DNA of 30,377 nt from a virus (IMGVR_UViG_2654587686_000023); one strand, 5' to 3'. Numbered from the stretch's first letter, positions 1,369 to 30,377 are shown. Numbers and translations: made by a program. The notes: generated by a model from the sequence alone, not told the origin.

Positions 1369-1444
1369 GCCGATATAGCTCAGTTGGTAGAGCAGCGCAT
1401 TCGTAATGCGAAGGTCGTAGGTTCGACTCCTATTATCGGCACCA
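1369..1444 (+). tRNA. thrW: tRNA-Thr, anticodon CGT (thrW-type)
   Basis: 76-nt cloverleaf-compatible sequence GCCGATATAGCTCAGTTGGTAGAGCAGCGCATTCGTAATGCGAAGGTCGTAGGTTCGACTCCTATTATCGGCACCA with T-loop GGTTCGA, anticodon loop CATTCGTAATG and genomic CCA end; lies directly downstream of proA as in E. coli. Confidence 0.93.
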
Positions 1445-1446
1445 TT
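1428..1446. repeat. attL core: 19-bp 3' end of thrW (TCCTATTATCGGCACCATT), first copy of island direct repeat
   Basis: Identical 19-mer recurs at 22304-22322; the first copy is part of the tRNA gene with an integrase gene immediately downstream. Confidence 0.85.
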
Positions 1447-1609: not shown

Positions 1610-2824
1610 GTGAAACTCAATGCCCGTCAAATAGACACAGCCAAGCCAAAAGAGAAGGCTTACAAGCTGACCGATGGTGGCGGTTTGTATCTCTTGGTAA
1701 AACCTAATGGAGGTAAATACTGGCGACTTAAATATCGTGTAGCTGGTAAAGAGAAGCTATTGGCACTAGGTGTGTATCCTGAGGTTACTCTAGCCGATGC
1801 TCGGGCAAAACGTGAAGATGCGAAAAGAGGTATCGCTGGTGGTATCGATCCGATGGAAGCGAAACGAGAGGAAAAGATTGCCCGGGAAACGCAGTTAAAC
1901 AACACCTTCAAAGATATTGCCCTTGAGTGGCACAGCAGCAAATTAAAAAAATGGTCTGATGGTTATGCTTCAGACATCCTCGAAGCCTTCAACAAAGATG
2001 TGTTCCCTTACATTGGCAAAAAACCCATCGCCGAAATCAAACCACTTGAACTTCTGAATGTGCTGCGTCGCATCGAGGGGCGCGGTGCTACAGAAAAAGC
2101 CAAAAAAGTGAGGCAACGGTGCGGGGAAGTTTTCCGCTATGCAATAGTCACTGGTCGCGCAGAGTATAACCCTGCACCAGACCTTACTAGCGCGATGCAA
2201 GGCCATGAATCTAATCATTACCCTTTCCTTACAGCCAAAGAATTACCTGATTTTTTCAAGGCATTGTCCAGTTACTCAGGAAGCGCATTGGTTGTTATGG
2301 CGGCTCGTCTACTGATTATCACCGGCTTGCGGACTGGCGAACTACGTGGCGCATTATGGGATGAAATTGATTTCAACAAGGCTATCTGGGAGATACCCGC
2401 TTCACGTATGAAAATGCGGCGGCCTCATATTGTGCCATTGTCTGAGCAGGCTCTTTCGCTTATTGGGAAGATTAGAGAAATAACAGGCAATTACCCTCTT
2501 ATGTTTCCCGGGCGCAATGATCCAAGGAAAACAATGAGCGAGGCCAGCATAAACCAAGTGTTTAAGCGCATTGGCTACGCTGGACGTGTAACTGGTCATG
2601 GGTTCCGGCACACTATGAGTACGATTTTGCATGAGCAGGGCTATAACACCGCGTGGATAGAAACGCAGCTCGCTCACGTTGATAAGAACTCAATTCGTGG
2701 CACATACAACCATGCGCAATATCTGGATGGAAGGCGGGAGATGCTTCAATGGTATGCCGACTATATGGATTCTCTCGAGCATGGCGGAAATGTGGTGCAT
2801 ATGGTGTTTGAAAAACACGCATGA
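1610..2824 (+). CDS. int: P4-family tyrosine integrase (GTG start)
   Basis: 404-aa ORF adjacent to the tRNA; N-terminal arm-binding-like region (KLTDGGGLYLLVKPNGGKYWRLKYR) and C-terminal catalytic region with HGFRHT and RGTYNHAQY motifs typical of P4-like integrases; GGAGG 9 nt upstream of GTG. Confidence 0.9.
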   Translation: MKLNARQIDTAKPKEKAYKLTDGGGLYLLVKPNGGKYWRLKYRVAGKEKLLALGVYPEVTLADARAKREDAKRGIAGGIDPMEAKREEKIARETQLNNTFKDIALEWHSSKLKKWSDGYASDILEAFNKDVFPYIGKKPIAEIKPLELLNVLRRIEGRGATEKAKKVRQRCGEVFRYAIVTGRAEYNPAPDLTSAMQGHESNHYPFLTAKELPDFFKALSSYSGSALVVMAARLLIITGLRTGELRGALWDEIDFNKAIWEIPASRMKMRRPHIVPLSEQALSLIGKIREITGNYPLMFPGRNDPRKTMSEASINQVFKRIGYAGRVTGHGFRHTMSTILHEQGYNTAWIETQLAHVDKNSIRGTYNHAQYLDGRREMLQWYADYMDSLEHGGNVVHMVFEKHA

Positions 2825-3215: not shown

Positions 3216-3419
3216 ATGGCTAATTACAATTCATTAATTCGTCTCTCTGAAGTTCAAAGGCGAACTGGTTATAGCAAAGCATGGATTTATCGTCTTATTA
3301 GTCAGGGGAGGTTCCCTAAACAGGTAAAAATTGGAAGTCGGGCAATTGCTTTTGTTGAGTCTGAAATAGATGAATGGATTGAGAAGTGTATATTAGAATC
3401 TAGAGACGAGGTGGCCTGA
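3216..3419 (+). CDS. alpA: AlpA-family phage transcriptional regulator (small HTH, excisionase-like)
   Basis: 67-aa ORF, sequence pattern LIRLSEVQRRTGYSKAWIYRLISQGRFPKQVKIG characteristic of the AlpA/prophage regulatory protein family; position right after int as usual in P4-like islands. Confidence 0.8.
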   Translation: MANYNSLIRLSEVQRRTGYSKAWIYRLISQGRFPKQVKIGSRAIAFVESEIDEWIEKCILESRDEVA

Positions 3420-4696: not shown

Positions 4697-4871
4697 GCCG
4701 ACAGGAACACCACAACCCCAAAAACGCTACAAAGATGCCCACGGAGCACTCGTTACTGTCGAAAGCGTGTCTCACAACCGAGTGACGTTTTATCGCGACG
4801 GGTATCAATCGCCATGCGTACAACTGCTGGCGCGCTTCATGAAGGAGTTCGCGGAGGTTAACAAATGCTAA
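4689..4871 (+). CDS. small hypothetical protein (~60 aa), start overlapping upstream stop
   Basis: In-frame ATG at 4689 inside ORF 4602..4871, overlapping the stop of the antirepressor gene (translational coupling pattern). Confidence 0.4.
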   Translation: MFKPTGTPQPQKRYKDAHGALVTVESVSHNRVTFYRDGYQSPCVQLLARFMKEFAEVNKC

Positions 4872-5302
4872 CCGTCCAGAAGAAGATATTTTCACTGGCT
4901 GGTATGTCGCCAAAATCCAGCAATATGACAGCAAAGTCTGGCATTAATACAGCATATACAAGCAAAGTTTATCATTTTCTGGTGGTAGGAGCGGATGCCT
5001 TAACTATGTCAGAAATTACGGTCGATGGTGTTAGCGTTGAGAAGGTCGGCGGCTGCGCCAGAGAATTTCTGGTCGTAGATGGCTTTCTCTGCTCGCGTAG
5101 TGACTCCACAAAAACCTTCGTCCACACGCGCGACGTTAACGAAATGAGCGCGATGTATTGTGCATCTGGTGCTTCCAATAGTGAGTTTTCGGAGTCCATA
5201 AAAAAGAGCTTGCCGTTATGCGGCAACACGGTTTATGGTTATAAGGCACCTCATAAAACGGGTGCCGGGATTGGCGTCCTGAAAATTCTGAAGGCGACAT
5301 AT

Positions 5303-5324
5303 GACGCGCCGAGCGTCTTTTTTT
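5303..5324 (+). terminator. Rho-independent terminator (GACGC-GCCGA-GCGTC followed by T7)
   Basis: Perfect 5-bp stem with 5-nt loop followed by seven T residues. Confidence 0.6.
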
Positions 5325-5362
5325 ATGTCGTAGGTCTGACTCACCCATTTTTTGGGCGTTGG

Positions 5363-5370
5363 TGTATAAT
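5363..5370 (+). promoter_or_regulatory. Extended -10 promoter element TGTATAAT
   Basis: TGnTATAAT match ~160 nt upstream of the 5527 gene, just downstream of the terminator; the leader contains a UUCG-tetraloop hairpin (5408-5421) and an 8-bp stem hairpin (5463-5496). Confidence 0.45.
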
Positions 5371-5526
5371 CCAGCGCCTTTGTCAATCAATGGTGGCTCA
5401 GGCGGGGGCTTCTTCGGAAGCGCCGGTATCCTTCAGAGCCGGTTACGCCAACCCTGTCTGGGCTACCACCAGCGAAATTGGCGTTTCCGGTGGTAGCGTA
5501 ACCTGCTATCTGAAGGAGGCTGCCAC

Positions 5527-5721
5527 ATGCTGGCTACTACCCCTACCCAAAAACCGCAATTTATCTGGATTATCGCCGCAGTTCGCCGCGATTGCCCGAC
5601 AATTACCGCCAAAATTCATCATATTGCTGCCGAGTCTGAACGCGATGCTCGCCGTTCTCTGGTGCGCGATCACGTCTGCTTTTTTGCTGGTCGTATCCGC
5701 ATGGAGGTGGCACATGATTAA
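5527..5721 (+). CDS. small hypothetical protein (64 aa); possibly Icd-like small prophage protein
   Basis: ORF with strong SD (AAGGAGG) upstream; Icd-like assignment is only a weak recollection. Confidence 0.55.
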   Translation: MLATTPTQKPQFIWIIAAVRRDCPTITAKIHHIAAESERDARRSLVRDHVCFFAGRIRMEVAHD

Positions 5722-5932
5722 AACCTACGATGTGCATATGGATCCCCTCGAACGCACAAGCCAGATCATCACACTGACAGAAGTGATTAACGACATTCTG
5801 GTGAGCAACTCTCCCTCACGAGACGAAAGACTGAAGGCGTTACTCGCGATATTGGATCTCGCCGTTCGTGACGTTCATTTCCTGCTGGAAGGTGGCGAAA
5901 TGCCAGGAAAAACGGGGGCAACCAATGAATAA
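5714..5932 (+). CDS. small hypothetical protein (72 aa)
   Basis: ATG at 5714 preceded by GGAGGTGG; overlaps the previous gene by 8 nt; this is the credible 3' part of the long 4865..5932 track ORF. Confidence 0.55.
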   Translation: MIKTYDVHMDPLERTSQIITLTEVINDILVSNSPSRDERLKALLAILDLAVRDVHFLLEGGEMPGKTGATNE

Positions 5933-7544: not shown

Positions 7545-7908
7545 AAATGCAGAAATGGCGCTTAGCTCCGCAATCGGAGAGCAGGTGGCAAAGATTGCTG
7601 GTGCTGTGTGGATTCATAACCTTCATTCTACTGGTGAAGAGAAAATGGCAATTCAGACGCCAGAGGGACGCACCATTACTACATCTCTGAAGCCGTCAGA
7701 TGTTTGTGATCTGATTTGCGCATTCATGTACCCAGCAATGAGGACTGTCCACGGCGATAAGTGGAAACTTGCGACAACCGCTGAATTTGATATGTGGCTA
7801 AACAATGATGGCATGCTGACTGATTACGGAATAACCAAGTGGCAGATGCTGGTTAGCCATATCGCAAACGCTATAGACCACGTGGGGTACGGTGATGCGA
7901 AACATTGA
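7537..7908 (+). CDS. hypothetical protein (123 aa)
   Basis: ORF with GGAGG SD, overlapping neighbours at both ends. Confidence 0.55.
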   Translation: MRENAEMALSSAIGEQVAKIAGAVWIHNLHSTGEEKMAIQTPEGRTITTSLKPSDVCDLICAFMYPAMRTVHGDKWKLATTAEFDMWLNNDGMLTDYGITKWQMLVSHIANAIDHVGYGDAKH

Positions 7909-10651
7909 TCTTATCCGTCAGGTTATCAGTGCGTCTGAAAACAACTGGCCTCATGTGCTGGGCTGCCTGAACATAAATGTCCCTGACTCTCCGCGCCGTC
8001 ATGCTCCCTGCCCTGCATGTGGGGGCAAAGATCGATTCCGGTTCGATGACAACGGGCGCGGTAGCTTCATCTGTAATCAGTGCGGCGCTGGTGATGGGCT
8101 GGATTTAATTAAACGCGTAAATAACTGCGACACAACAGAGGCGGCGCTTCTTGCCGCTGATGTTCTGGGTATTGATTACCGGACAACGGAAACACCAGAA
8201 GCCACCAGCCAGAAACGGGAACAACTGGAAACCGAGCGCCAGCGACGCGAACAGGAGCGCCTGAAAAGGGCAGAGAAGGACGAACAACAAAGACGGGATA
8301 CGTTTTCCCGTCAGTTTGATGACATGCGCAGAAAGGCTGTAAACGGCAAATCTGATTATCTGGTTGCGAAAGGGGTAGGTGATTTTACATTCCCCGTGTT
8401 GCCCGATGGATCTCTGTTGCTGGCGCTGGTGGATAAATCCGGCGCAGTCACAGCAGCACAGACTATTACCTCACATGGTGAAAAAAGACTCCTGACAGGT
8501 TCAGCAAAGCGGGGGGCATATCACGCCATAAACGCACCAGAAACAACACAGAGCATCTTAATCGCAGAAGGGCTGGCAACGGCATTATCTGCCCATTTAA
8601 TTCGTCCAGAGGCGCTGACAGTGGCGGCGATTGATGCCGGGAACCTGTTATATGTCGCCCAGGTACTGCGGGATAAATATCCATCAGCACAAATCATCAT
8701 TGCTGCGGATAACGACCACAGCGAAGGAAGACAAAACACGGGGAGAATAGCAGCAGAAAAAGCAGCTTTATCTGTTTCTGGATGGGTGGCATTACCCCCG
8801 ACAGATCACAAAGCAGACTGGAATGATTACCACCAAAAACACGGCATTAAATGCGCCACAGAAGCGTTCAATAAGTCAATGTACCAACCACAGGGTAATG
8901 GCGTGAAACAGGAGCCACAGACCATTGAGGGAAGCGATTTTAAGGTTATGGATACCGACCCACTGAAACCAAGAATAGAAAGCCGCGAGGATGGTATTTA
9001 TTGGGTATCTCCGAGAGCTGACAGCCAGAGTGGAGAAATCATCAATAACGAAAGCTGGTTATGTTCTCCGTTAAGCGTTATCGGTACTGGCAGAGACGAT
9101 AAAGACCAGTATCTCATTCTTCGCTGGCTGTCGTTTGGTTCTGAAACGCCGACAACCGCTGCCATTCCACTGGCTGATATTGGTGAACGTGAAGGATGGC
9201 GCACACTTAAAGCTGGTGGGGTAAATGTCACGACCAAAAGCAGCCTCAGAGCAATACTGGCAGACTGGCTACAACGCAGTGGCTCTCGTGAATTGTGGCG
9301 TGTTGCTCATGCCACTGGCTGGCAATGCGGAGCGTACATCATGCCTGATGGGGAAATCATCGGAACACCTGAAAATCCTGTGCTGTTCAGCGGGAGAAGC
9401 TCAGCCGCAGCCGGATATACCGTCTCAGGGAGCGCGAAAAGCTGGCGTGATAACGTGGCGCGTCTGGCCTTTGGTAACTATTCAATGATGACCGGGATCG
9501 GCGCAGCACTGGCAGCGCCATTGATTGGGCTGGTGGGCGCTGACGGGTTCGGCATTCATTTCTATGAGCAGTCGAGCGCAGGTAAGACCACCACGGCAAA
9601 CGTGGCGAGCAGCTTATACGGCAACCCTGATTTACTGCGGCTGACGTGGTACGGAACCGCGCTGGGGCTGGCAAATGAAGCCGCCGCCCACAATGACGGA
9701 CTAATGCCGCTTGATGAAGTTGGTCAGGGCGCTGATCCTGTCAGTGTTTCACAGTCTGCCTATGCGTTATTTAACGGTGTAGGGAAACTGCAAGGCGCTA
9801 AAGATGGTGGAAACCGGGATCTAAAACGCTGGCGTACAGTGGCAATCAGCACTGGAGAAATGGATTTAGAAACATTTATCGCTACTTCCGGGCGAAAAAC
9901 CAAAGCCGGGCAACTGGTGCGACTGCTGAATATTCCGTTGAGTAAAGCAGTACGCTTTCACGATTACCAGAACGGAAAACAGCACGCAGACGCACTGAAA
10001 GACGCTTACCAGCATCACCACGGCGCAGCCGGGCGTGAGTGGATTAAATGGCTGGCAGACCACCAGCAACAGGCAATTAAAACTGTTCGTGACTGCGAAA
10101 GCAGATGGAGAAGTCTGATCCCATCCGATTATGGTGAGCAGGTTCACCGTGTAGCCGCGCGATTTGCCATTCTGGAGGCCGCATTGCTGTTAGGCGAGGT
10201 TGTAACAGGCTGGGATGCTCAGACATGCCGTGATGCGATACAGCACAGCTATAACGCATGGTTGCGCGAGTTCGGCACAGGTAACAAAGAACATCAGCAG
10301 ATTATTGAACAAACGGAGGCATTTCTTAATGCCTATGGGCTTAGCCGTTTTGCACCATTTCCATACAGCCCGGCAGATTTGCCCATCAAAGATTTGGCCG
10401 GATACCGTCAGCGTGGAGAACATGACGAAAGCCCAATGATTTTCTACACATTCCCGGCCACATTTGAAAAGGAGATCGCATGTGGTTTCAACGCAAAACA
10501 GTTTGCTGAAGTGTTGAAAAAAGCCGGGATGCTAACCCCACCAAACAGCGGTCGTGGATACCAAAGAAAATCACCACGTATTCAGGGACGACAAATAAAC
10601 GTTTATGTACTCAATTACCAGCCAGGAGATTATAACTCATCTGAAGAATGA
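7892..10651 (+). CDS. P4 alpha-like primase-helicase (zinc-binding primase domain + TOPRIM-like region + D5/DUF927-type NTPase)
   Basis: 919-aa ORF; N-terminal CPACGG...CNQCG zinc-ribbon typical of P4 alpha/bacteriophage primases; Walker A-like SSAGKTT in the C-terminal half; size and position typical for P4-like islands. Confidence 0.85.
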   Translation: MMRNIDLIRQVISASENNWPHVLGCLNINVPDSPRRHAPCPACGGKDRFRFDDNGRGSFICNQCGAGDGLDLIKRVNNCDTTEAALLAADVLGIDYRTTETPEATSQKREQLETERQRREQERLKRAEKDEQQRRDTFSRQFDDMRRKAVNGKSDYLVAKGVGDFTFPVLPDGSLLLALVDKSGAVTAAQTITSHGEKRLLTGSAKRGAYHAINAPETTQSILIAEGLATALSAHLIRPEALTVAAIDAGNLLYVAQVLRDKYPSAQIIIAADNDHSEGRQNTGRIAAEKAALSVSGWVALPPTDHKADWNDYHQKHGIKCATEAFNKSMYQPQGNGVKQEPQTIEGSDFKVMDTDPLKPRIESREDGIYWVSPRADSQSGEIINNESWLCSPLSVIGTGRDDKDQYLILRWLSFGSETPTTAAIPLADIGEREGWRTLKAGGVNVTTKSSLRAILADWLQRSGSRELWRVAHATGWQCGAYIMPDGEIIGTPENPVLFSGRSSAAAGYTVSGSAKSWRDNVARLAFGNYSMMTGIGAALAAPLIGLVGADGFGIHFYEQSSAGKTTTANVASSLYGNPDLLRLTWYGTALGLANEAAAHNDGLMPLDEVGQGADPVSVSQSAYALFNGVGKLQGAKDGGNRDLKRWRTVAISTGEMDLETFIATSGRKTKAGQLVRLLNIPLSKAVRFHDYQNGKQHADALKDAYQHHHGAAGREWIKWLADHQQQAIKTVRDCESRWRSLIPSDYGEQVHRVAARFAILEAALLLGEVVTGWDAQTCRDAIQHSYNAWLREFGTGNKEHQQIIEQTEAFLNAYGLSRFAPFPYSPADLPIKDLAGYRQRGEHDESPMIFYTFPATFEKEIACGFNAKQFAEVLKKAGMLTPPNSGRGYQRKSPRIQGRQINVYVLNYQPGDYNSSEE

Positions 10652-10670: not shown

Positions 10671-10798
10671 AAAGGTGTTGGTTCAGTTGGTTCAGTTGGT
10701 TCAGTTGGTTCAATTTGTAAAGAGTATTGTTTTATAAGGATTTTATTCTTTTTATTGAACCAACACTGAACCAACAACACGGTATTTTGAACCAACAC
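10671..10798. repeat. Iteron cluster A: four tandem GGTTCAGTT units (10680-10715) followed by three inverted TGAACCAACA copies (10756-10798); candidate alpha-binding crr/ori-type site
   Basis: Directly visible tandem and inverted repeats immediately 3' of the primase gene; by analogy with P4 alpha binding short iterons in ori and crr (established for P4, inferred here). Confidence 0.6.
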
Positions 10799-11117
10799 AA
10801 TGTGACTGAATTGATGCGCACAACACCTGGCTGGCATCAGAGAGTGTTTTACGAGACTTTCGTAAAATCCTGTGTACAAGGGCGTGACGTTTTTGAAAGT
10901 GAGCACTACGAAATTTTCGTAGTTCAAAAAACAGCCTCTGAGAAGTTGTTATGCCTGTTCAGCAAACCATCCGCATAGCTGATCGCGAATCAAATTACCA
11001 ATGGAGCCAGAAGCAAGGGCAGAACTGAAAAGTGCCTGCCGTGAAGAGTAATGCGACACCATAAATATAGTTTTTAGAGTCCATAAAAAACCAGTCAAAA
11101 CCTGACACACAGAACGA

Positions 11118-11149
11118 TGCCACCAGCTACTGAGCGGTGGCATTTTTTT
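11118..11149 (+). terminator. Rho-independent terminator (TGCCACC-loop-GGTGGCA + T7)
   Basis: 7-bp GC-rich stem, 11-nt loop, followed by TTTTTTT. Confidence 0.6.
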
Positions 11150-11244
11150 GTGCTATTTGTTTCATATTTTGCAATTACGATGATGAATATTGCGATTTAT
11201 GAAACTATAATAACTGTTGTTTTATACAGTTCTAAGGGGGCGTT

Positions 11245-11406
11245 ATGGCTATTTCAGTAAAGCCGGTATTGATAAGTGAGAAGCAAATGGAAGCGATAAA
11301 GAAAATTCAGGAAGAGCAGCGTAAAAAATCAGGAATTGGAGTAGCGCCAACTCTGCATGAAATTGCTCGAGGGTTAATAGATAAGGCGCTGGCAGGCTGT
11401 ATGTGA
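11245..11406 (+). CDS. small ribbon-helix-helix-like DNA-binding protein (53 aa)
   Basis: Short ORF below the 60-aa track cutoff, strong SD (AAGGGGG) 5 nt upstream of ATG; beta-strand then two helices pattern (ISEKQMEAIKKIQ...LHEIARGLIDKAL) typical of CopG/Arc-type proteins. Confidence 0.5.
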   Translation: MAISVKPVLISEKQMEAIKKIQEEQRKKSGIGVAPTLHEIARGLIDKALAGCM

Positions 11407-11422
11407 AAATGGATGGCATCGC

Positions 11423-11884
11423 ATGGAACTAAAATTTATTGATAACCCTGTGCGATTACAGGCCTTTCTTAACGATCCTGGCAATACCGAAAATATTGTT
11501 GAGCCGGGGCACACGTACTACATCAAGCCTGATGCGGTATATCTCGGCATCTACGAAGGATTGGTGCTGGCTGGCGTTCATGAAGTGCGTAACTTCTGGC
11601 ATAGCGTTGTTGAATGCCATGCGGTGTATGACCCCGGATTCCGTGGTGAATATGCACTGCAAGGGCATCGACTATTCTGCAAATGGCTTCTCGAAAACTC
11701 ACCATTCCTTAACAGCATCACTATGGTTCCTGACACCACGAAATACGGACGGGCAATTATCCGTTTGCTTGGCGCTACCCGTGTTGGTCACCTTGATGAT
11801 GCTTATATCAGATGTGGTAAACCCGTCGGCGTAACGCTTTATCAGTTAACTCGGCAACAATATAAGGAATTCAGCGAATGTTAA
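11423..11884 (+). CDS. hypothetical protein (153 aa), first gene of a coupled 4-gene operon
   Basis: ORF; stop overlaps the next start. No family recognised. Confidence 0.6.
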   Translation: MELKFIDNPVRLQAFLNDPGNTENIVEPGHTYYIKPDAVYLGIYEGLVLAGVHEVRNFWHSVVECHAVYDPGFRGEYALQGHRLFCKWLLENSPFLNSITMVPDTTKYGRAIIRLLGATRVGHLDDAYIRCGKPVGVTLYQLTRQQYKEFSEC

Positions 11885-12555
11885 TTACCCATATAGCTCA
11901 TAAACATCTCAATCGTGCCGTATACGAAAAAGGCGGTGATGGTGGTGCCTCTAAAGCTCAGGCGAAGGCCCAGCAGCAGGCAATTGATTTGCAGCGCGAG
12001 CAGTGGAATACGGTGATGAATAATCTCAAGCCGTATGCAGAAGTCGGATTGCCTGCTTTACAACAACTACAAGGACTGATGACTCTGGAAGGGCAGAATA
12101 AAGCCGCGAATGATTTCTTTGGTTCTGGTTTATATAAAACACAGGCAGATCAGGCCCGTTATCAGAACCTTGTCTCAGCAGAAGCTACCGGGGGGCTTGG
12201 CTCAACAGCTACCAGTAACCAGTTATCTTCCATTGCGCCCATGCTTTATAACAATTGGCTTAGTGGGCAAATGCAAAATTATGGAAACCTGCTAAATGTC
12301 GGGATGAATGCGGCATCAGGGCAGGCAACGGCAGGGCAAAACTACGCCAATAATACCGGACAACTCTTGCAGGGGCTTGGCGCTATTCGTGCAGGTCAGG
12401 CGCAGCAGCCATCCAGTCTTGCGCGTGGTATTGGTGGGGCAGCATCAGGCGCTTTAGCGGGTGCGCAACTTGGTTCCGTTGTTCCTGGAATAGGTACTGC
12501 GGCAGGCGCTATTGGTGGTGGGCTTATTGGTCTTGTTGGGGGGCTTGGATTCTAA
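11878..12555 (+). CDS. hypothetical protein (225 aa) with Gly/Ala-rich glycine-zipper-like C-terminus; phage ejection/internal-protein-like
   Basis: ORF with low-complexity C-terminal GxxxG-rich hydrophobic segment (GIGGAASGALAGAQLG...GGLIGLVGGLGF); start overlaps upstream stop. Confidence 0.6.
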   Translation: MLITHIAHKHLNRAVYEKGGDGGASKAQAKAQQQAIDLQREQWNTVMNNLKPYAEVGLPALQQLQGLMTLEGQNKAANDFFGSGLYKTQADQARYQNLVSAEATGGLGSTATSNQLSSIAPMLYNNWLSGQMQNYGNLLNVGMNAASGQATAGQNYANNTGQLLQGLGAIRAGQAQQPSSLARGIGGAASGALAGAQLGSVVPGIGTAAGAIGGGLIGLVGGLGF

Positions 12556-13874
12556 TGGCGACATGGCAACTTGGCGGGCTGCCTAGCATGGCACCGCAAA
12601 ATGATAATGCTCCTCGTTCTTCCGTTCCTCAGCCTGTGCAGTATCAGCAGCAGCCAAACGTAGGTTTAATGGCGCTACAGGGGCTAAGAGGCGTTGCTGA
12701 GATTAATCAGCAGGCGCAAATTTCCCAGCAGCTAAAAGAATATCAGGCACAGTTGGGTAGTGCGGTAGCTAATAATGATCGTGTTGGCGTGCAGAAGTTA
12801 ATGGCCCAGTATCCCCAGTTTATGGCTGATTCTCAAAAACAGATGGGATTCATTGATGCTGAGCAAAATCGGCAGACCGCTGACGCTGCCATGAATCTGC
12901 GTCTTGCGTCACAAACTGGAGATCCACTGACCATGCAGAAGGCCATTCAGCAGGCAAATCCAGTATTACAGCGATTTGGTCTTCCTGCTGAAGAGGTTTA
13001 TCAGTCTTGGCAGAATGACCCACAGGAATTCAACAGAATCACTGACCTCATCCACCTCCATGCTGATCCAAATAGTTACTTTAGTGTTCAAGAGAAGCAG
13101 CAAGGGCAGAGTATTGCACAGCAGAACGCAGATACATCTGCATATAATGCTCAGGTTAATGCGGAACAGGGTAATCGGCGTCTCGATATGGAGCAGTTCA
13201 AAGTCCTATCCGATAACCAGCTACGCACGAGAGAAATGGTTCTGAAAGCACGACTTGGACGTGCTCAAAATGACATCGAGAGAGACAAGCTCAATGCTGA
13301 ACTGAGCAAGGTACAGCAGGCGAAAGTGGAGAAGATGAACGATAAAATTAATACTGTTGCAGGTAACATCGACTCCTTGAACTCTGCGCTTGAAGTGGGT
13401 CATGAACTGGCGGGAATTGTAGGGAAACATCCTTCGGCCGTTACCCGTTCGCAGAACTATAACCCCCTGACGCTGGGGTTTGGATTCCTTCCTGATGTAG
13501 CAGAAGACACACGAAGCCTACGCGCCAAAGCTGATGAATACAACCTAAAGGTTATTCTGCCTAGCCTCAAAGGGACTTTTGGCTCTAACCCAACCGAAGG
13601 GGAAAGGGCTGCCCTTATGCAATCTCAAAATGGCATTAAGTCAGCAACCAGCAATGAGGCATTTTTGCGAGAGTTGAATAAAGCGCAGGACGTAATTATT
13701 CGAATGCAGAAACGACAGATTGCCGGGCTCGGTATTCCTGTAACCAAATCTAAGGACGAAGAAACTGATACTAAAATGCTGTTGCAGGATCCTTCTCTGG
13801 TTAAGGATTATGTGACCGCACATGGCTATCTGCCGGAAAGTTACTATCAGGCAAAACTTAAGGGATGGCAATGA
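12555..13874 (+). CDS. hypothetical Gln-rich, probably coiled-coil protein (439 aa); phage ejection/internal-protein-like
   Basis: ORF whose ATG overlaps the previous stop (TAATGG); Q-rich heptad-like sequence. Confidence 0.6.
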   Translation: MATWQLGGLPSMAPQNDNAPRSSVPQPVQYQQQPNVGLMALQGLRGVAEINQQAQISQQLKEYQAQLGSAVANNDRVGVQKLMAQYPQFMADSQKQMGFIDAEQNRQTADAAMNLRLASQTGDPLTMQKAIQQANPVLQRFGLPAEEVYQSWQNDPQEFNRITDLIHLHADPNSYFSVQEKQQGQSIAQQNADTSAYNAQVNAEQGNRRLDMEQFKVLSDNQLRTREMVLKARLGRAQNDIERDKLNAELSKVQQAKVEKMNDKINTVAGNIDSLNSALEVGHELAGIVGKHPSAVTRSQNYNPLTLGFGFLPDVAEDTRSLRAKADEYNLKVILPSLKGTFGSNPTEGERAALMQSQNGIKSATSNEAFLRELNKAQDVIIRMQKRQIAGLGIPVTKSKDEETDTKMLLQDPSLVKDYVTAHGYLPESYYQAKLKGWQ

Positions 13875-16591
13875 TGGCACAACTGACAGAAAAACAGAAA
13901 GCCTATTCCCGTCATCTCGATGAAAAATATGGTTTCCCATCAGGGACGATGGAAACATTAGTTGGCAATGAATCTAGTGGTAACGGAAGTGCCGAGTCAC
14001 CGAAAGGAGCTAGAGGATTTGCTCAACTGATGCCCTCAGTAATGAGTGATGCTGGTTATCGTGGAACAGATCCGCGCTCACTGCCATTTGAAAAGCAAAT
14101 GGATATCGCAGCAAACCATCTCAATAAAGGAATGAAGCGATTTGGTGATATAGGTATGGCATTGGCTGGGTATAATTCTGGCTATGCTCGTATTAATGCC
14201 GTAAGAAACGGTAAATCTACACTGCCAGATGAAACGGCTAATTACGTAAGTAAATTTGCAGATGCCGGAATAATCCCTGATGACAGTGAAATCTTGCAGT
14301 TTGCACAAACCAGTCAACATCGCAATCTTCAGCAGCCTGACTACTCAGAGCTTGATAAAGAAATCTCTCAGGTGGGAGATATTTCTGCATGGGAAGCAAA
14401 ACGTCAGCAATTTAAGAACATAGAAGCAGGACTACCAACAGCCAGTTCATGGGAGCAGAAAAGAGCTCATTTTCTCGCCGATGAAAATGCCGGGGAACCG
14501 CAGCAGCAAGTAGCCAAGTCTAACCTTAATCCTGAGATGGAATATCTTTCGCCAGGACTGAAAGCTGCGCCAGAGCAGATGGCCAGAGGGATTGCTAATA
14601 TACCGTTTGATGTAATGGACGCAGGCGTGGGGGTAGTCAATGCGGCGCAATCAGCCGGAGCATGGGCAGCTCAGAAGCTTGGTGTGGGTGATGGTACATA
14701 CACGCCCATATCACCTGTCTTTCGCCCAGTAGACCAACCTACAGATCCATACGCGCAGGCTGGTGAGCAGCTAGCACCTTACCTTATTACAGGATTAGGT
14801 GCAGGAAAGGCAGCTACCGCAGCTTCTTCAGTTGCCAACGCTCCACGTGCTGAACGTGCGGCCACAAAGGTGGCTAGTATGTTGGCAGAAAACCTGCCAG
14901 GTACATTGGTGAACGCCCAAAAGAACGGGCAGATCAGCCCAGAAGACCTAGCAAAAGAGACAGGTATTGGCCTAGCAGGATCGCTAGGAGCACGCGCTTT
15001 AATAAAGAGCGGACAGACAGCCAGTGACGTAATGCGAGATGTATTGCGGAGTAATACAAATCAATCAAGCTATGTGTTAGGGGCAGCAAATACTCTGGAA
15101 ACCGCCAATGATGTATCGAAAGCAGCGCGTTCTGCCGTAGGCCGAGAGCATATCGCATCGCAGGCATCAAACGTCAGAGATGATGTCGCTAAGGCGGCGA
15201 AAATCACTGGTATTAATATCAACACCCTGACGCCTGGAATGCGCTCAGGTAGTCGTGGAATTGCCCAAGCAGAAGGTGTTCTGGCATCAACTCCTGGGAA
15301 TGTTCAGGATGCTCACCTTACGGCCTTCAATGAAATATCCTCAAAGTTGAATAAGCAGTTGTCTGATTTCGGTGCTGAGTCTGGAAGCGCATCAGAAAAA
15401 AGCGCAGCAATTAAAGAGCGCATCATCGCGAGCCTCAGTGATATGAAAACAGCAGAGAATATGGCATGGGCAGAACTGCGAAGCACGATGCCACGCGAAA
15501 GGATGAAAATGAGTAATGGGATGGCTGTCGTCCAAGCAGAAAAAGCAGCCAATGTTCCACTCAGCCCGGAGATGAAACAGTTTCAGGCTGCCAATAACCA
15601 AGGTGGCGGCATAACCTTCGACGGGATGAAGGCATGGCGTGCTAAGTTTGCTGATGCTGAACAAGCAAACACCCGGGCAGGTAAGGCCAATGCCGCCCGG
15701 GTTGCCGGAGAAATGCGCAGAGCTATCACTGATGACATGCGCATCATGGCTGAAAAAGGAAACTTCCTCACAGAATGGCAGAAAGCTAACGATCTCTCTA
15801 AAAGTTACATTATCGCCAAACAAAATGCCGAATCTGTTTTTGGTCGAGATCTCGCATCAGACGCTATGGTAAGAAAAGGTGCCGATACGCTTAAGGCATC
15901 CGCAAACACTGGAACGGGAGCTTTTCACCGTCTTATCTCCGCGCTGCCGGAAGCAGAACGCCAACCAGCAATAGCATCTATTCTTCAGCATGCTGTGGCG
16001 CAGGGAGAGAAGGGAGGAATCGGTGAAGAGTCTGGTATCCAGTATTTTGCCAAGCTCATGACCCAGCAGAATGTAAACGCCATCAGTCGTCATGCGCCAG
16101 ATCTCGGTAGAATGATGAAAGAGTTCGGTGTACTCGCTAAAGCCAGCACCAGACCGCAGCGATACGTAGAGCGCACGGGAAGAACAACTGAGGCTCTCAA
16201 AACGCTCGATTCAGGCCTTCCAAAGATCGTCGGCGTGATTATGAACGGAGTTCAACAGTCAGGTGCGATCGCTGGAGGCTTTGGCGGTGGTGTAATTGGT
16301 TCGATTAGTGGTTTGGTTGCTGGTGGCGCGCTGAGAAATACTGTGGCTAAGATTGGGGCGACAAGAAGTGGTCGATATGCGATAGAGAAAGCCGTTCAGG
16401 AAGCTACAAAAGCAGTGCGCGCAGGGGCATCACCAGCAGCGATCGCCGCAGCAGAGAAACGATTTTCGGCCAATAAAATTGCCATGAAAGCAATTCGTGA
16501 TGCCGTTGGGGCTGAAGAATTCGTGAAACTGACAAGGGCCGGGATTGTAGCTACCCTCAGTGGCATGAAAGATGTTAGCGAATGGGAATAG
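13865..16591 (+). CDS. large protein (908 aa) with N-terminal lytic transglycosylase (SLT) motif; phage internal-virion/ejection-protein-like
   Basis: N-terminal ES...GARGFAQLMPS...AGYNSGY pattern matches the catalytic Glu-Ser and G-L-M-Q/AYN-G signatures of family-1 lytic transglycosylases; rest is Ala-rich low complexity; start overlaps upstream stop. Confidence 0.7.
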   Translation: MAMMAQLTEKQKAYSRHLDEKYGFPSGTMETLVGNESSGNGSAESPKGARGFAQLMPSVMSDAGYRGTDPRSLPFEKQMDIAANHLNKGMKRFGDIGMALAGYNSGYARINAVRNGKSTLPDETANYVSKFADAGIIPDDSEILQFAQTSQHRNLQQPDYSELDKEISQVGDISAWEAKRQQFKNIEAGLPTASSWEQKRAHFLADENAGEPQQQVAKSNLNPEMEYLSPGLKAAPEQMARGIANIPFDVMDAGVGVVNAAQSAGAWAAQKLGVGDGTYTPISPVFRPVDQPTDPYAQAGEQLAPYLITGLGAGKAATAASSVANAPRAERAATKVASMLAENLPGTLVNAQKNGQISPEDLAKETGIGLAGSLGARALIKSGQTASDVMRDVLRSNTNQSSYVLGAANTLETANDVSKAARSAVGREHIASQASNVRDDVAKAAKITGININTLTPGMRSGSRGIAQAEGVLASTPGNVQDAHLTAFNEISSKLNKQLSDFGAESGSASEKSAAIKERIIASLSDMKTAENMAWAELRSTMPRERMKMSNGMAVVQAEKAANVPLSPEMKQFQAANNQGGGITFDGMKAWRAKFADAEQANTRAGKANAARVAGEMRRAITDDMRIMAEKGNFLTEWQKANDLSKSYIIAKQNAESVFGRDLASDAMVRKGADTLKASANTGTGAFHRLISALPEAERQPAIASILQHAVAQGEKGGIGEESGIQYFAKLMTQQNVNAISRHAPDLGRMMKEFGVLAKASTRPQRYVERTGRTTEALKTLDSGLPKIVGVIMNGVQQSGAIAGGFGGGVIGSISGLVAGGALRNTVAKIGATRSGRYAIEKAVQEATKAVRAGASPAAIAAAEKRFSANKIAMKAIRDAVGAEEFVKLTRAGIVATLSGMKDVSEWE

Positions 16592-16741
16592 ACGCTCTAA
16601 CTAACAAAACCATAATAGCCAAGGACGGCATACTGATATTGAGCCAACTATCAAAATTCCATATCACATTACGAGCCTGTGGCTTACATTCGCTTACAGT
16701 GATGATAATTTATAACCACGCAATTCTTAGGTGAGATTATC

Positions 16742-17440
16742 ATGATTAAAAATCTTCTTTTAATATTATCCCTGTCATTATTGGCTGGATGCGTACAAAA
16801 ACCGTTAGTAACGGTCAATGCTTTATCTTCCGGGCAATCTGTCGGTAAGAAGTTCTTGATCATCCCCGCAAGCCAAGAACTTTGGAACACCAAACAGATT
16901 GAATACACTCAAATAGCTACGGTAGTAGCCGCCAGTTTATCAAGCCAAGGATATACACAAGTTAAAGATGAAAAATTGGCTGACCAGGTAATTCTCTTGA
17001 ACTTTTTGAGAAGCGGGGCCATTTCAAATACTCGTAATGTAACCATCCCAATATACGGGCAAACTGGTGTGAGCTCAGCAACAACGTACGGAAACTCGAA
17101 CACCACGTTCAATAGTTATGGTGGTGGCTACGGTACAGCTAATACCACTGGAACGGCAACAACAGTTTATACGCCTACTTATGGAATTACTGGCGCGTAT
17201 AACACAACTGTGACGGACACGTTCTACGGCGCAGGGGTGATACTCCAGTCGTTTGATGCCAAGGCCTATCTCAATAATAGGCAGATTAATATGTTATGGA
17301 AAGTTGGTAGCTCAGTCGTCTCGCAACAGTCTGATGGAATTGCTGATTACAAGGGGTTGGCGAGAATAGCCGCTAGCTATGCCGGGAAAAATACAGAAGG
17401 TGATATAACTTTTAATGTTGACCCTAAAGCACCAAATTAA
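16742..17440 (+). CDS. putative lipoprotein (232 aa), Thr/Gly/Tyr-rich
   Basis: N-terminal signal peptide with lipobox LLAGC (Cys at position 17); followed by a hairpin terminator. Confidence 0.7.
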   Translation: MIKNLLLILSLSLLAGCVQKPLVTVNALSSGQSVGKKFLIIPASQELWNTKQIEYTQIATVVAASLSSQGYTQVKDEKLADQVILLNFLRSGAISNTRNVTIPIYGQTGVSSATTYGNSNTTFNSYGGGYGTANTTGTATTVYTPTYGITGAYNTTVTDTFYGAGVILQSFDAKAYLNNRQINMLWKVGSSVVSQQSDGIADYKGLARIAASYAGKNTEGDITFNVDPKAPN

Positions 17441-17476: not shown

Positions 17477-17624
17477 TTATTCATGAATCGCTTTTTCTAG
17501 AAGGTATGCGACAAACGTTAAGTGACATTGCCTACACATTCGGGGCGGGATTTCAAATCCGCTCCCAGTTGATGGGGCCGTTACAGTACGCGCATATCCG
17601 CTTTATGTGAAACAGGAAGATTTT

Positions 17625-17676
17625 TCTGATATCACTGCCACAGCAAAACACCAATTTCGAGACAAGTACGCGCGCG
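17625..17676. repeat. Repeat copy A: TCTGATAT...ACAAGTACGCGCGCG, (CG)n palindrome
   Basis: 15-mer ACAAGTACGCGCGCG at 17662-17676; same 15-mer also at 17948-17962 and 20654-20668. Confidence 0.7.
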
Positions 17677-17933: not shown

Positions 17934-17962
17934 TCTGATATTTTGCGACAAGTACGCGCGCG
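17934..17962. repeat. Repeat copy B: TCTGATATTTTGCGACAAGTACGCGCGCG (contains 12-bp palindrome TACGCGCGCGTA)
   Basis: Seen in sequence; 29-bp unit shares about 24 positions with copy C. Confidence 0.7.
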
Positions 17963-18299: not shown

Positions 18300-18737
18300 T
18301 CATATGTAACTTATTATTTTAGATAAAGATTTCCAGTTAAAGAAAAAAGTTATCATTGATATAATCAAATATGCCCCTGCGAGTAGCAGGGCATAATAAT
18401 CCAGAGGCAGATTGCTGACAACAGGGGCAAACATCGAGATCATTGCTAATAGGCAGGCTGTGATCAGCGTAGTTCCTGTATCAAAAAGCCCCTCAATAAT
18501 GCCTTTTAGTACTCCGTTACTTTTTAGAGCGCCTACAATTCCCTTTGAACTATCAAAGCTACTTAGCATGGTGACTGATGCCAAAACAAAACCAAAGAGA
18601 ACTCCAGAAATAGTTGAAAGAGCACCAGCAGCCGAAATGACAGCATTGTGATCTAGGTCGTGTAAAAAATGGGCACCAGCAATAGCCATAGCTAGAGCAA
18701 ACAATGACTTGGCAGCAAACAATTTCCGAGAACTCAT
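18300..18737 (-). CDS. small integral membrane protein (145 aa, about four predicted TM helices); candidate effector of a two-gene defence/abortive-infection module
   Basis: ORF with AGGA SD 8 nt upstream; four hydrophobic segments by eye (approx. residues 7-27, 32-60, 87-107, 114-134); 12-bp gap to the upstream gene. Confidence 0.7.
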   Translation of the reverse strand: MSSRKLFAAKSLFALAMAIAGAHFLHDLDHNAVISAAGALSTISGVLFGFVLASVTMLSSFDSSKGIVGALKSNGVLKGIIEGLFDTGTTLITACLLAMISMFAPVVSNLPLDYYALLLAGAYLIISMITFFFNWKSLSKIISYI

Positions 18738-18749
18738 AATGTATTCCTG

Positions 18750-19835
18750 TTACGTTTGACTAACCAAATAGTACTGGGTTAGATACCTAAGGTTGTCATT
18801 CTTTGCTTGTAGCATAGCATTTTTAACGTCAGTATCGGTCGGATACCCATCTGCTTGGATAGGCACCATCTTCTTTACCGTAAGAACTTCGTCTACAAGA
18901 CTTTTCTTCTTTTTATCGCCCTGAGCAACAACATTTGCTTTCTCAAAAGTTAAACGACCATCACCACCAGGGAACTTTTCTAGCATCTCCTTAAGGCTTT
19001 TTTTAACGTCATCCTCAAGCCATCCCTTTGCTTTTCTTTTTAATGGAGAATGTCCGCGTAACGAAATAGTCAGGTGGCTTGAACTGGTGCCTCTGATCAT
19101 CTCAATCATCTGATTCGCGAACATTCCATCGAGTTGATACTGTGCGGCATTGAAGTTTCTTGGGATGGCCACAGAAATCTCGCAGCTTCTTAGATTGGAT
19201 CCAGTTTCGAGTAGTTCTTTGATGCTTTCTTCTTTCCAAATGGCTTCAAAAGAAACAGGGACTCCGCGATCACTGGAGTTGAAAAGAAGGAAGGCTAAGT
19301 CACTATGGCGTGGACCTAAATGATTTAAAGACAATACTAGAATGTCTGTCTGAGGATAATAAATAAAGTATGTACGTTCTGAAAGAGTCTTTGCCCCGGC
19401 TAGAGGGATTTTCTCTTCCACCCACTCTTTATCTGTAATATATGCCAGTGTTGCGCTTTTTCTTCTTCGAGACATGAATCCGAAGTAGGAGCCATCCTCG
19501 GGTGAGATGTCTAGAAAATGAATTTTAAGTTCTCTTTCACCAAAGTCTGCATAGTGGGTCATCTTGAAGTCTTTAGAACACCGATCATAGAGATTTTTAA
19601 AGGCCTCTGCGGTTAACCCCTTGTTACTAGTGCGAATATTCTCAGAGCTTGTGTAAAAGCCCACCCTTACAGATTTCAAACTTTGATCTTTTGGTGCCAC
19701 AGTCATTTGAGCTCCATTGTACTCTGCGATAGTTTTTGCACACCTTGAAATCAAAATCTCCATGTCAGTCACGAGAAAATAACTATGGATGAAACCCATC
19801 AAAGGCATTGAATACAGGTGGCTTTTGAGAATCAT
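18750..19835 (-). CDS. hypothetical soluble protein (361 aa as drawn; alternative start at MTVAPKD... about 43 codons downstream has a better SD)
   Basis: Long ORF on minus strand immediately upstream of the membrane-protein gene; no recognisable catalytic motif. Confidence 0.7.
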   Translation of the reverse strand: MILKSHLYSMPLMGFIHSYFLVTDMEILISRCAKTIAEYNGAQMTVAPKDQSLKSVRVGFYTSSENIRTSNKGLTAEAFKNLYDRCSKDFKMTHYADFGERELKIHFLDISPEDGSYFGFMSRRRKSATLAYITDKEWVEEKIPLAGAKTLSERTYFIYYPQTDILVLSLNHLGPRHSDLAFLLFNSSDRGVPVSFEAIWKEESIKELLETGSNLRSCEISVAIPRNFNAAQYQLDGMFANQMIEMIRGTSSSHLTISLRGHSPLKRKAKGWLEDDVKKSLKEMLEKFPGGDGRLTFEKANVVAQGDKKKKSLVDEVLTVKKMVPIQADGYPTDTDVKNAMLQAKNDNLRYLTQYYLVSQT

Positions 19836-20639: not shown

Positions 20640-20668
20640 TCTGGTATTTCGGAACAAGTACGCGCGCG
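20640..20668. repeat. Repeat copy C: TCTGGTATTTCGGAACAAGTACGCGCGCG (14-bp palindrome TACGCGCGCGCGTA)
   Basis: Third copy of the ACAAGTACGCGCGCG 15-mer. Confidence 0.7.
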
Positions 20669-22219: not shown

Positions 22220-22242
22220 TATGGGGGTACTTTTGGGGGTAT
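22220..22242. repeat. ATGGGGGTACTTTTGGGGGTATC, right-end copy of the GGGGGTA arm-type motif
   Basis: Near-identical to 1557-1580. Confidence 0.55.
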
Positions 22243-22303: not shown

Positions 22304-22322
22304 TCCTATTATCGGCACCATT
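22304..22322. repeat. attR core: second copy of TCCTATTATCGGCACCATT
   Basis: Exact 19-bp repeat of the thrW 3' end (1428-1446). Confidence 0.85.
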
Positions 22323-24190: not shown

Positions 24191-24674
24191 CCTAATGGAT
24201 ACACAGGGGAATAGATTAAATAGTGTTCTGTTTATACAGGTTTATTTGTTAGATCAACAATTTGGCATTTCTAAACAGATGTTTGAACGTTGCCAAATGT
24301 CTTGACAACACAAGAAAAGGGCTTGCTATGCCACGCATTACACGAAATAAGGCTGTAAAAACAAAATAAATTTTAAAATTTGCACAAACGAGAAAACTCA
24401 TTCAGAAACAAGCAGAACAATTTTTAGCCAACAATTTCTGATGGTGCTCTGTAAGCCGCACTACACAAGGCTTTGCGAAAGTGATGTAAAAGTGAAGAAA
24501 GTAAGAATTGCACTTTTAAGCTACTTTTCATTGAATTTTTAGTATGGAATTACACAGGAATAAGTTAGGGATATTCTATGATTTACACAGGGAATATAGG
24601 GGATTATGGCACACACATAGAAAGGCATTACACAGAGTGCTATGTGATGATTGGTAGTAACGGTAGTTCACTAT

Positions 24675-24784
24675 GAGCTAGGGGGTAGTTCACTATGAGC
24701 TAGGGGGTAGGTCATAGTGAGCTAGGGGGTAGGTCACTGTGAGCTAGGGGGTAGGTCATAGTGAGCTAGGGGGTAGGTCACTGT
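24675..24784. repeat. Five tandem 22-bp iterons GAGCTAGGGGGTAG(G/T)TCA(C/T)(T/A)GT with a partial leading copy from about 24655; candidate plasmid/phage replication origin
   Basis: Contiguous 22-bp direct repeats without spacers, immediately followed by an extremely AT-rich stretch (24795-24880, including (TA)n). Confidence 0.75.
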
Positions 24785-24794
24785 GAACTACAAT

Positions 24795-24880
24795 AAGACT
24801 ATTAATAAAACTATATTAGATTATTAATTAGATCATAATAATAATATTCTTTATATCTATATATATATATGATCTTTTGC
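24795..24880. other. AT-rich putative DNA unwinding element adjacent to the iterons
   Basis: Nearly pure A/T run with TATATATATATA; iteron + AT-rich arrangement is standard for theta-type origins. Confidence 0.5.
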
Positions 24881-30256: not shown

Positions 30257-30377
30257 TATTTTAACGTGTAATAGAGGCGTGGCGCTGATGAATCCCCTAA
30301 TGATTTTGGTAAAAATCATTAAGTTAAGGTGGATACACATCTTGTCATATGATCAAATGGTTTCGCGAAAAATCAAT

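Follow-up and report, generated by a model that had tools for sequence, protein, structure and literature searches.

The subject of this analysis is a 30,377-nt stretch of DNA from the viral record IMGVR_UViG_2654587686_000023 (referred to throughout as the window), in which an operon of bacteriophage P22-like ejection protein genes occupies positions 11,245 to 17,440. We lean towards reading positions 1428-22322, the 20.9-kb element that holds this operon, as an integrative satellite that has P22-like (Lederbergvirus-type) podophages as its helpers, mimics their packaging (pac) site and brings ejection proteins (E-proteins) of its own. The DNA is that of E. coli, and the order in the window is proA, the tRNA-Thr(CGT) gene thrW and then the island. 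An earlier note on the operon had proposed that podophage ejection proteins were encoded within a satellite-like thrW island, and Pfam and PHROG matches bore this out; the six open reading frames (ORFs) with their overlapping stop and start codons were also recovered where that note had placed them (53, 153, 225, 439, 908 and 232 aa).

Gene content of the ejection protein operon

The 153-aa protein (11423..11884, + strand, as for all genes of the operon) matched DUF2824, the family of P22 gp14, a head-morphogenesis and E-protein assembly factor (E 5e-62, 208.8 bits against a Pfam cut-off of 25). The 225-aa protein (11878..12555) matched the ejection protein family P22_gp7 (E 7e-73, 245.8 bits, Pfam cut-off 28) and the 439-aa protein (12555..13874) matched Inj_translocase, the family of the ejection protein P22 gp20 (E 4e-22, 79.5 bits, cut-off 29.7). 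Residues 17-119 of the 908-aa protein (13865..16591) matched the SLT lytic transglycosylase domain (nt 13913-14221; PF01464, E 1e-12, 48 bits against a cut-off of 21.3) with the catalytic motifs complete in the translation (NES...SPKGARGFAQLMP...AGYNSG), and residues 182-864 matched phrog_770 'DNA transfer protein', the gp16 family (E 2e-120); PF26808 (Phage_P22_gp16) is recorded on close homologues of this protein. The four genes are coupled by stop/start overlaps of 7, 1 and 10 nt and, by these profile matches, are the P22 gp14-gp7-gp20-gp16 set with the predicted gp16 fused to an N-terminal SLT domain. The lytic transglycosylase start of the 908-aa protein and the likeness to the P22 series, both suggested in the earlier note, were therefore confirmed, as were a glycine-rich C-terminus of the 225-aa protein and the glutamine-rich composition of the 439-aa protein, which were seen in the translations. 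The likeness to T7 gp16-type proteins that it had also drawn stood for the SLT domain and failed for the rest: when T7-type core proteins (gp14/gp15/gp16) were considered, only the SLT region matched, to phrog_342 (aa 9-217; labelled 'internal virion protein with endolysin domain'), and the remainder fell to P22 families.

The fusion of SLT to gp16 is also found in the P22-like phages Dewey and Huey, where aa 21-903 were matched at 46.5% identity. Compared with phage and prophage copies, island gp20 was at most 36% and island gp16 at most 54% identical, the resemblance of gp20 being confined to its N-terminal third, and two island gp16 alleles reached no more than 52% and 67% identity to any sequenced phage. 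Alignment of window 13200-14900 with a Serratia island gave 59-79% identity over the C-terminal half of gp20 and 62-67% over the N-terminal third of gp16 including SLT. The stretch shared between the window and Serratia islands is one contiguous block of DNA with flanks of only 18-36%, and the C-terminal half of gp16 was nearer to phage copies (55-71%). Because this mosaic block is shared with Serratia islands, the alignments suggest that the C-terminal part of gp20 and the N-terminal part of gp16 co-evolve.

Ahead of these genes stands a 53-aa leader (11245..11406, +) which is island-specific and tentatively ribbon-helix-helix (RHH)-like. No match to it was obtained in Pfam, PHROG or PDB-sequence searches and it was absent from 50,697 phage records; homologues were found in Citrobacter, Serratia, Klebsiella and Salmonella. 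Its AlphaFold model (mean confidence, pLDDT, of 75) had an extended N-terminus and two helices, compatible with the RHH topology, and Foldseek gave no significant match.

The last gene encodes a lipoprotein of 232 aa (16742..17440, +) with the lipobox LLAGC, putatively DUF4136/TraT-like and in a position equivalent to that of sieA. Its Pfam matches were sub-threshold (E 0.06 and 0.09), and distant homologues carry DUF4136 (PF13590). The structural model (pLDDT 82) contained an LptE/DUF4136-like domain and a very long beta-hairpin, for which Foldseek returned 4f54 (DUF4136) and the decameric surface-exclusion lipoprotein TraT (9fsm/9fs5) with E values of 2e-3 to 5e-3 but low TM-scores of 0.26-0.44. 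A copy of 62% identity lies between gp16(SLT) and arc/tailspike in a Serratia P22-like prophage, which is the sieA position in P22, and in three Citrobacter-like islands the lipoprotein follows gp16 at 88-89% identity. An exclusion-type role, as had been proposed, is plausible from this gene position; the structural likeness that would add to it is weak.

Conservation and distribution of the module

The order primase, RHH gene, E-protein genes recurred in further E. coli islands at thrW and also at a second E. coli site (yicC/dinD), where the integrase differs and the primase is of the DUF5906 type. Serratia islands carried RHH-gp20-gp16SLT and Citrobacter-like and Leclercia islands RHH-gp14-gp7-gp20-gp16SLT; a wide-species scan with gp7 gave at least 14 loci. 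The island family, with hosts among E. coli, Citrobacter-like, Leclercia and Serratia genomes, measures 17-21 kb and has integrase, AlpA, AntA/Bro, Ash and primase genes with an iteron origin, two attachment (att) sites and two primase types. When marker proteins were mapped on the fetched loci, the islands were without terS, terL, portal, coat, gp4, gp10 and needle genes, and the prophage loci carried all of them. The earlier note had held that confinement of the block to a podoprophage would speak against it, and the synteny came out the opposite way, the block being present in related islands and not confined to podoprophages.

Between E. coli and Citrobacter/Leclercia islands all four gene lengths were unchanged and dN/dS was 0.06-0.08 at dS of 1-2, so the E-protein module is under strong purifying selection. 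E. coli islands held at least four highly divergent gp20/gp16 allele pairs and the pair was never split, which mirrors the experimental finding that gp16 and gp20 must form a matched pair while gp7 is interchangeable (PMC10461980). The gp14 and gp7 genes were either jointly present or jointly absent in these islands. An E. coli island of the same backbone that had been chosen as a control lacking E-protein genes (L034) turned out to hold the fourth gp20/gp16 allele pair, and the only relatives located without E-protein genes were islands of K. michiganensis. Approximately 253 of 5,426 complete E. coli genomes had the gp14-gp7 pair of the island type, and in only approximately 22 did gp14-gp7 occur in two places.

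The possibility that a decayed P22-like prophage at thrW left its ejection genes as a non-functional passenger beside an unrelated island with a P4-type integrase was weighed against these data. P22 itself integrates at thrW, and the genes of the block, that of the lipoprotein included, are ordered as in a P22-like late operon. The same block, however, follows the same RHH and primase genes in four genera and at a second att site, where the integrase is another one, all its genes are intact with the low dN/dS given above, and dS of 1-2 excludes recent copies of a single event. In addition, the block has its own conserved promoter with a LexA box and lies within one element bounded by perfect att repeats. 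A true remnant looks different: the one at the argW/intS locus of E. coli O157:H7 comprises gp14 and gp7 with needle and gp20 genes that are both truncated, and has no gp16. We give this explanation next to no credence. The remnant of O157:H7 and O55:H7 accounts for most of the 'phage-type' gp14 matches in E. coli.

The backbone and RHH leader are the same in the K. michiganensis islands (L008-L010, 10001-13800), where the slot encodes 605 aa with C-terminal matches to the 'tail injection transglycosylase', tape-measure and endolysin families. This gene is followed by one for 168 aa with a small-terminase-like helix-turn-helix (HTH); a TerS-like HTH was found in this variant only. Islands in general may use the position behind the RHH gene to exploit their helpers, with contents adapted to the helper type.

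P22-type pac sequences in the islands

The small terminase gene of phage Louie unexpectedly matched the island, at window 5013-5119 (- strand). This 107-nt terS-derived fragment, pac site A, lies antisense inside the 355-aa ORF of the Ash family (4865-5932) and is 85-87% identical to Louie terS nt 268-374 and to P22 nt 4-110 (86.9% for P22 NC_002371.2). The annotated pac site of P22 is nt 4-25; site A is homologous from pac base 1 onward, with no homology upstream of that base. The 22-mer of site A (GAAGGTTTTTGTGGAGTCACTA) agrees with the full P22 pac at 16 of 22 positions and has one mismatch to the pattern of functional pseudo-pac sites, which was derived experimentally (PMC11226127). Pac site B (GAAGATTTTTCTGATATCACTG, 17616..17637, +) lies directly 3' of the lipoprotein gene and has 11 of 12 positions of the P22 pac core AAGATTTATCTG, 16 of 22 of the full site and, again, one mismatch to the pattern. 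It was conserved at 97-100% downstream of the E-protein module in all five E. coli islands examined, and a search for its origin gave no nucleotide match in phages.

In islands outside E. coli, between two and six pac-like sites were found, all on the operon strand and within approximately 500 bp directly downstream of the E-protein module. Several of them had no mismatch to the pseudo-pac pattern, one Serratia site agreed with P22 pac at 19 of 22 positions, and the Poisson probability of such arrays was 1e-7 to 1e-14. The scanned phage and prophage loci with P22-type terS (Louie, L018) had one site each, within terS, and the K. michiganensis islands, which have no E-protein genes, had no P22-type pac site. 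A complete P22-type terS was present in 258 of the 5,426 complete E. coli genomes; some 440 more E. coli genomes had the 107-nt fragment alone, always terS nt 268-374 and always within 'ash family' genes of islands. The islands thus carry predicted mimics of P22 pac, oriented such that packaging would run from the E-protein module through the cargo to the right att site (attR). In Staphylococcus aureus pathogenicity islands (SaPIs) the accessory genes also lie between pac and the island end (PMC12829572).

Several further features were noted around these sites. The N-terminal extension of the Ash ORF that holds the terS/pac fragment is absent from the shorter Ash proteins (177-295 aa) of other genera; either the ORF has been called with too early a start or an in-frame insertion brought the fragment in. 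A repeat that ends in ACAAGTACGCGCGCG is present three times, at window 17648-17676, 17934-17962 and 20640-20668; the first copy is part of the terS-like fragment of site B, and the other two, which look like shortened derivatives, bracket variable cargo. The repeats could be scars of recombination or could serve as additional sites for terminase or a regulator. The motif AGTTTT(C/T)(G/A)GAGTCCATAAAAAA occurs at 5184-5205 by pac fragment A, at 11069-11090 upstream of the E-operon terminator and also at 10912-10933, and GAGTCCATAAAAA, possibly a shared regulatory site, is conserved, at times twice, in Citrobacter and Leclercia islands.

Promoter region and predicted SOS control

The 90 bp 5' of the RHH start codon were conserved in five genera and contained, in order, an inverted repeat, TATAAT and a LexA-box core. 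The inverted repeat (TTTCA-N5-TGCAAT-N13-ATTGC-N5-TGAAAC, 11159..11205), likewise conserved in the five genera, abuts the -10 element and is a putative operator. The perfect TATAAT (11206-11211) and the LexA-box core CTGT-N8-ACAG (11214-11229) together occupy 11206..11229 (+). This core occurs a single time in the 30-kb window, 3 nt past TATAAT, and the two elements were found at the same position in every island with E-protein genes, in four genera. The only other LexA boxes in the island loci were those before dinD, a classic SOS gene, which served as an internal control. Upstream of the RHH gene, a scan with the sigma-70 consensus gave no canonical promoter, the perfect -10 being without a -35, and the promoter call therefore rests on conservation. 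Because a LexA box is conserved at this promoter, the E-operon is predicted to be SOS-inducible, which would coincide with the induction of P22-type prophages. An intrinsic-terminator-like hairpin with a T-run (11108..11152, +) would shield the operon against upstream transcription.

LexA control is typical of host damage responses, and one may ask whether the E-proteins now serve the cell in a way unrelated to virions, as an SOS-induced envelope channel or in peptidoglycan remodelling for DNA release, uptake or lysis, with the pac-like repeats being regulatory. An SLT domain and membrane-active gp7 and gp20 could indeed act on the envelope. Against this, no signal peptide was visible in the translations of any of the four proteins (gp14, gp7, gp20, gp16), gp14 is a virion-assembly factor, a 107-nt terS homology starting at pac base 1 has no regulatory rationale, and the module co-varies with P22-type pac sites. 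We consider cellular co-option improbable.

Taken together, conservation across genera, sites and primase types, purifying selection, the pac mimics and the promoter with its LexA box make the E-protein genes look like a core helper-exploitation module. The suggestion in the earlier note that they were cargo, or a podophage remnant captured as cargo, was not upheld.

Island borders, backbone and a circularly permuted contig

The element is delimited by a perfect 19-nt direct repeat. The left att core (attL, 1428..1446, +) is the 3' end of thrW (1369-1444) and is identical to the attR core at the right end of the island (22304..22322, +); a pair of arm-type repeats (1557-1578 and 22221-22242) lies between the two cores. 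The exact 40-nt attP junction that joins the right end, core and left end was present in the IMG/VR contig UViG_2617270975_000009. The two pieces of this contig sum to the full 21,415 bp with one att core, and its last base continues, in a homologous contig, into its own first bases. The LexA box, RHH-gp14-gp7-gp20-gp16 and pac site B were present in it together with the complete backbone. The contig is thus a circular permutation of unit length, which an excised circle or a tandem dimer would be expected to give. Metagenome contigs gave no exact match to the attP junction. The same contig has, at approximately 8928-9709, a perfect 391-bp tandem duplication between the primase and RHH genes, which may be real or an assembly artefact.

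The backbone begins with a tyrosine integrase of P4-family architecture (1610..2824, +; Pfam Arm-DNA-bind_3, Phage_int_M and Phage_integrase) and an AlpA-type HTH excisionase/regulator (3216..3419, +; PHROG excisionase/transcriptional regulator, homologues with PF05930 Phage_AlpA). An AntA antirepressor-like protein (AntA/Bro) is encoded between the AlpA and Ash genes, and several small proteins of no assigned family separate the Ash gene from that of the primase/replicase (7895..10651, +; Zn-ribbon, Toprim and DUF927 by Pfam and RefSeq annotation). A putative replication origin with four direct GTTGGTTCA iterons, an AT-rich spacer and three inverted copies follows at 10677..10796. The E-operon is followed 3' by approximately 5 kb of cargo, in which a PerC-family regulator is encoded, and PADLOC gave no match among the cargo, lipoprotein and unassigned backbone proteins of the window.

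Psu, Sid and Delta/Ogr were all without a match when the backbone ORFs were scanned with Pfam and PHROG, and the description of the island as a P4-like satellite in the strict sense was given up on this account, the integrase of P4 family, AlpA, Ash and primase being present. No small terminase, Rpp or Ppi encoded by the window was found in Pfam/PHROG scans. Of the properties by which one recognizes Gram-negative phage-inducible chromosomal islands (PICIs), the island has the integrase, AlpA, primase/replicase with origin, att sites and size class, and departs from the absence of phage structural (virion) genes, with gp7, gp20 and gp16 homologues and gp14 present. By gene content the architecture is PICI-like.

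Two neighbouring features were observed. A two-gene cassette on the minus strand at window 18300-19706 encodes proteins of 145 aa (phrog_8552) and 318 aa (phrog_7651); an equal-sized minus-strand pair lies elsewhere in the K. michiganensis islands (L008:7228-8634), and the cassette is a candidate mobile accessory or defence pair, with a negative PADLOC result. The regenerated thrW core holds, in tandem, a second element, low in GC and approximately 22 kb long, which takes up the window from 22323 to its end at 30377 (and runs on to approximately L001:44033). Iterons of 22 bp are found at 24640-24812, and the encoded proteins include an HTH protein resembling replication initiators, a resolvase, an integrase of the element's own, a major-head-protein homologue (29228-30256) and others like tape-measure and tail-fibre proteins. 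This element may represent a mini-phage or a further satellite.

Proposed satellite cycle

The cycle that we propose for the satellite is as follows. At thrW the RHH-gp14-gp7-gp20-gp16(SLT)-lipoprotein operon would be repressed by LexA, with a second repressor probably bound at the adjacent inverted repeat, until DNA damage, which also induces P22-type prophages, derepresses it. The integrase and AlpA would excise the island and replication would start from the iteron origin beside the primase gene. A helper small terminase with P22-type pac specificity would then recognize the pac mimics, and headful packaging would load island concatemers into procapsids built by the helper. Island gp7, gp20 and gp16, aided by gp14, would enter these procapsids by their conserved N-terminal parts; E-proteins do enter procapsids by N-terminal regions that contact the scaffold (PMC8402733), and foreign E-proteins do assemble into P22 virions (PMC10461980). 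In the next cell the three proteins would form a trans-envelope channel for island DNA. Possession of a matched gp20/gp16 pair would probably free entry of the island from the E-protein type of the helper, and would let the island pass entry blocks that are E-protein-specific, such as SieA in helper lysogens, from which changes in E-proteins are known to permit escape (PMC10461980). Mismatched pairs may also spoil helper virions.

A number of points weigh against this satellite reading. Both pac sites of the window are one mismatch off the functional pattern, in two E. coli islands site A has a degenerate pac core, and the pac-like arrays could bind a factor other than terminase. Co-residence of the island with a P22-like prophage, detectable as a second gp14-gp7, is rare, and SOS-timed expression would therefore often occur with no resident helper. 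E-proteins enter procapsids ahead of DNA, which means that heads to be filled with island DNA are not specifically targetable, and no function for capsid size or terminase redirection was identified in the island. The circularly permuted contig could be a collapsed tandem duplication and not a free circle. We infer that a helper packages the island, that island E-proteins enter the particles and that this confers a selective benefit, as we do transfer itself and, from its motif alone, LexA binding.

Some of these points favour a different explanation, namely that the island acts mainly in anti-phage interference, with mismatched E-proteins, made upon SOS or infection, being built into the procapsids of an invader and spoiling its virions, and the pac arrays titrating or misdirecting its terminase; the cell population would be protected, transfer of the island being incidental or absent. 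P22 particles in which gp16 alone or gp20 alone is foreign are non-infectious (PMC10461980), and since E-proteins load before DNA, helper heads would receive those of the island (PMC8402733). Most islands have no co-resident P22-like prophage, neighbouring cargo in related islands is of the defence type (Abi_2, RnlAB), and pac arrays of several sites resemble decoys. Interference would, however, not need a complete matched set with the gp14 assembly factor under purifying selection, and the integrase, AlpA, primase, origin, intact att sites, spread across genera and sites and the circular assembly in attP form all point to active transfer. Known satellites do both, which makes interference a second function more than an alternative. 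As the main role of the island we regard it as rather unlikely, and satellite transfer with helper-built particles is the reading retained here. Its extension, an abundant family of P22-like-podovirus satellites that copies pac, replaces the ejection set of the helper, bypasses SieA-type blocks, spoils helper particles and is timed by SOS, is put forward tentatively, at somewhat less than even confidence.

Significance and comparison with known systems

Full-text literature searches, with most subscription journals outside their reach, found no satellite that encodes ejection proteins or uses P22-like helpers, and targeted reading of a satellite census (PMC10085698), surveys of P4-like elements, a review of E-proteins and the SieA paper gave no mention of such satellites; no satellite is known to encode ejection proteins of its own. 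The island is probably an undescribed, common satellite that would ride in P22-like heads with its own kit for DNA injection. P22 is a classic model of transduction, capsid assembly and genome ejection, and if this reading is true there would be a third kind of satellite contribution to the particle beside capsid remodelling and packaging redirection, as well as a natural system in which to study the purpose of E-protein diversity and SieA-type exclusion. An element in some 5-8% of complete E. coli genomes may then move defence and virulence-linked cargo by headful packaging and, as the pac sites point outward, neighbouring chromosomal DNA could move too. Matches to gp14, gp7, gp20 and gp16 would become unreliable markers of P22-like prophages in annotation.

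The E. coli PICIs described so far have cos-type siphophage helpers, whose packaging is redirected by Rpp, and are defined as being without virion genes. The island resembles Gram-negative PICIs such as EcCICFT073 in size (approximately 10-20 kb), an integrase at a tRNA/att site, AlpA, a primase/replicase beside an iteron origin, a far end that holds accessory or defence genes, and a presumed reliance on the packaging machinery of a helper. Unlike them, its family has three or four genes for virion-associated proteins (the E-proteins and, in some islands, gp14), P22-type pac mimicry and a module with a LexA box, and the Rpp, Ppi and TerS homologues were not found in the island. With P4 it shares the integrase architecture, an AlpA/Vis-type HTH, an Ash-family protein, a large primase, enterobacterial hosts and integration at a tRNA gene. 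P4, whose helper is the cos-type myophage P2, encodes no ejection proteins, whereas the island has no Psu, Sid or Delta/Ogr and its helper would be a P22-like podophage with headful pac packaging.

The module itself is like the gp14-gp7-gp20-gp16 and sieA region of P22 in its families, order, translational coupling, gp20/gp16 pairing, mosaic alleles and an exclusion-type gene after gp16, which in the island is putative. It differs in being detached from all other virion genes, with a 53-aa gene and a LexA-box promoter in place of the phage late operon. A parallel in strategy is offered by the pac-type SaPIs and the capsid-forming PICIs (cfPICIs), satellites that supply part of the particle or packaging machinery themselves, and the pac-to-attR layout is like that of SaPIs (PMC12829572). 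SaPIs supply TerS and cfPICIs supply capsid and packaging genes, and neither supplies the apparatus for DNA ejection; the island described here seemingly borrows its packaging specificity through a copied helper pac, and its own contribution would be the injection machinery.

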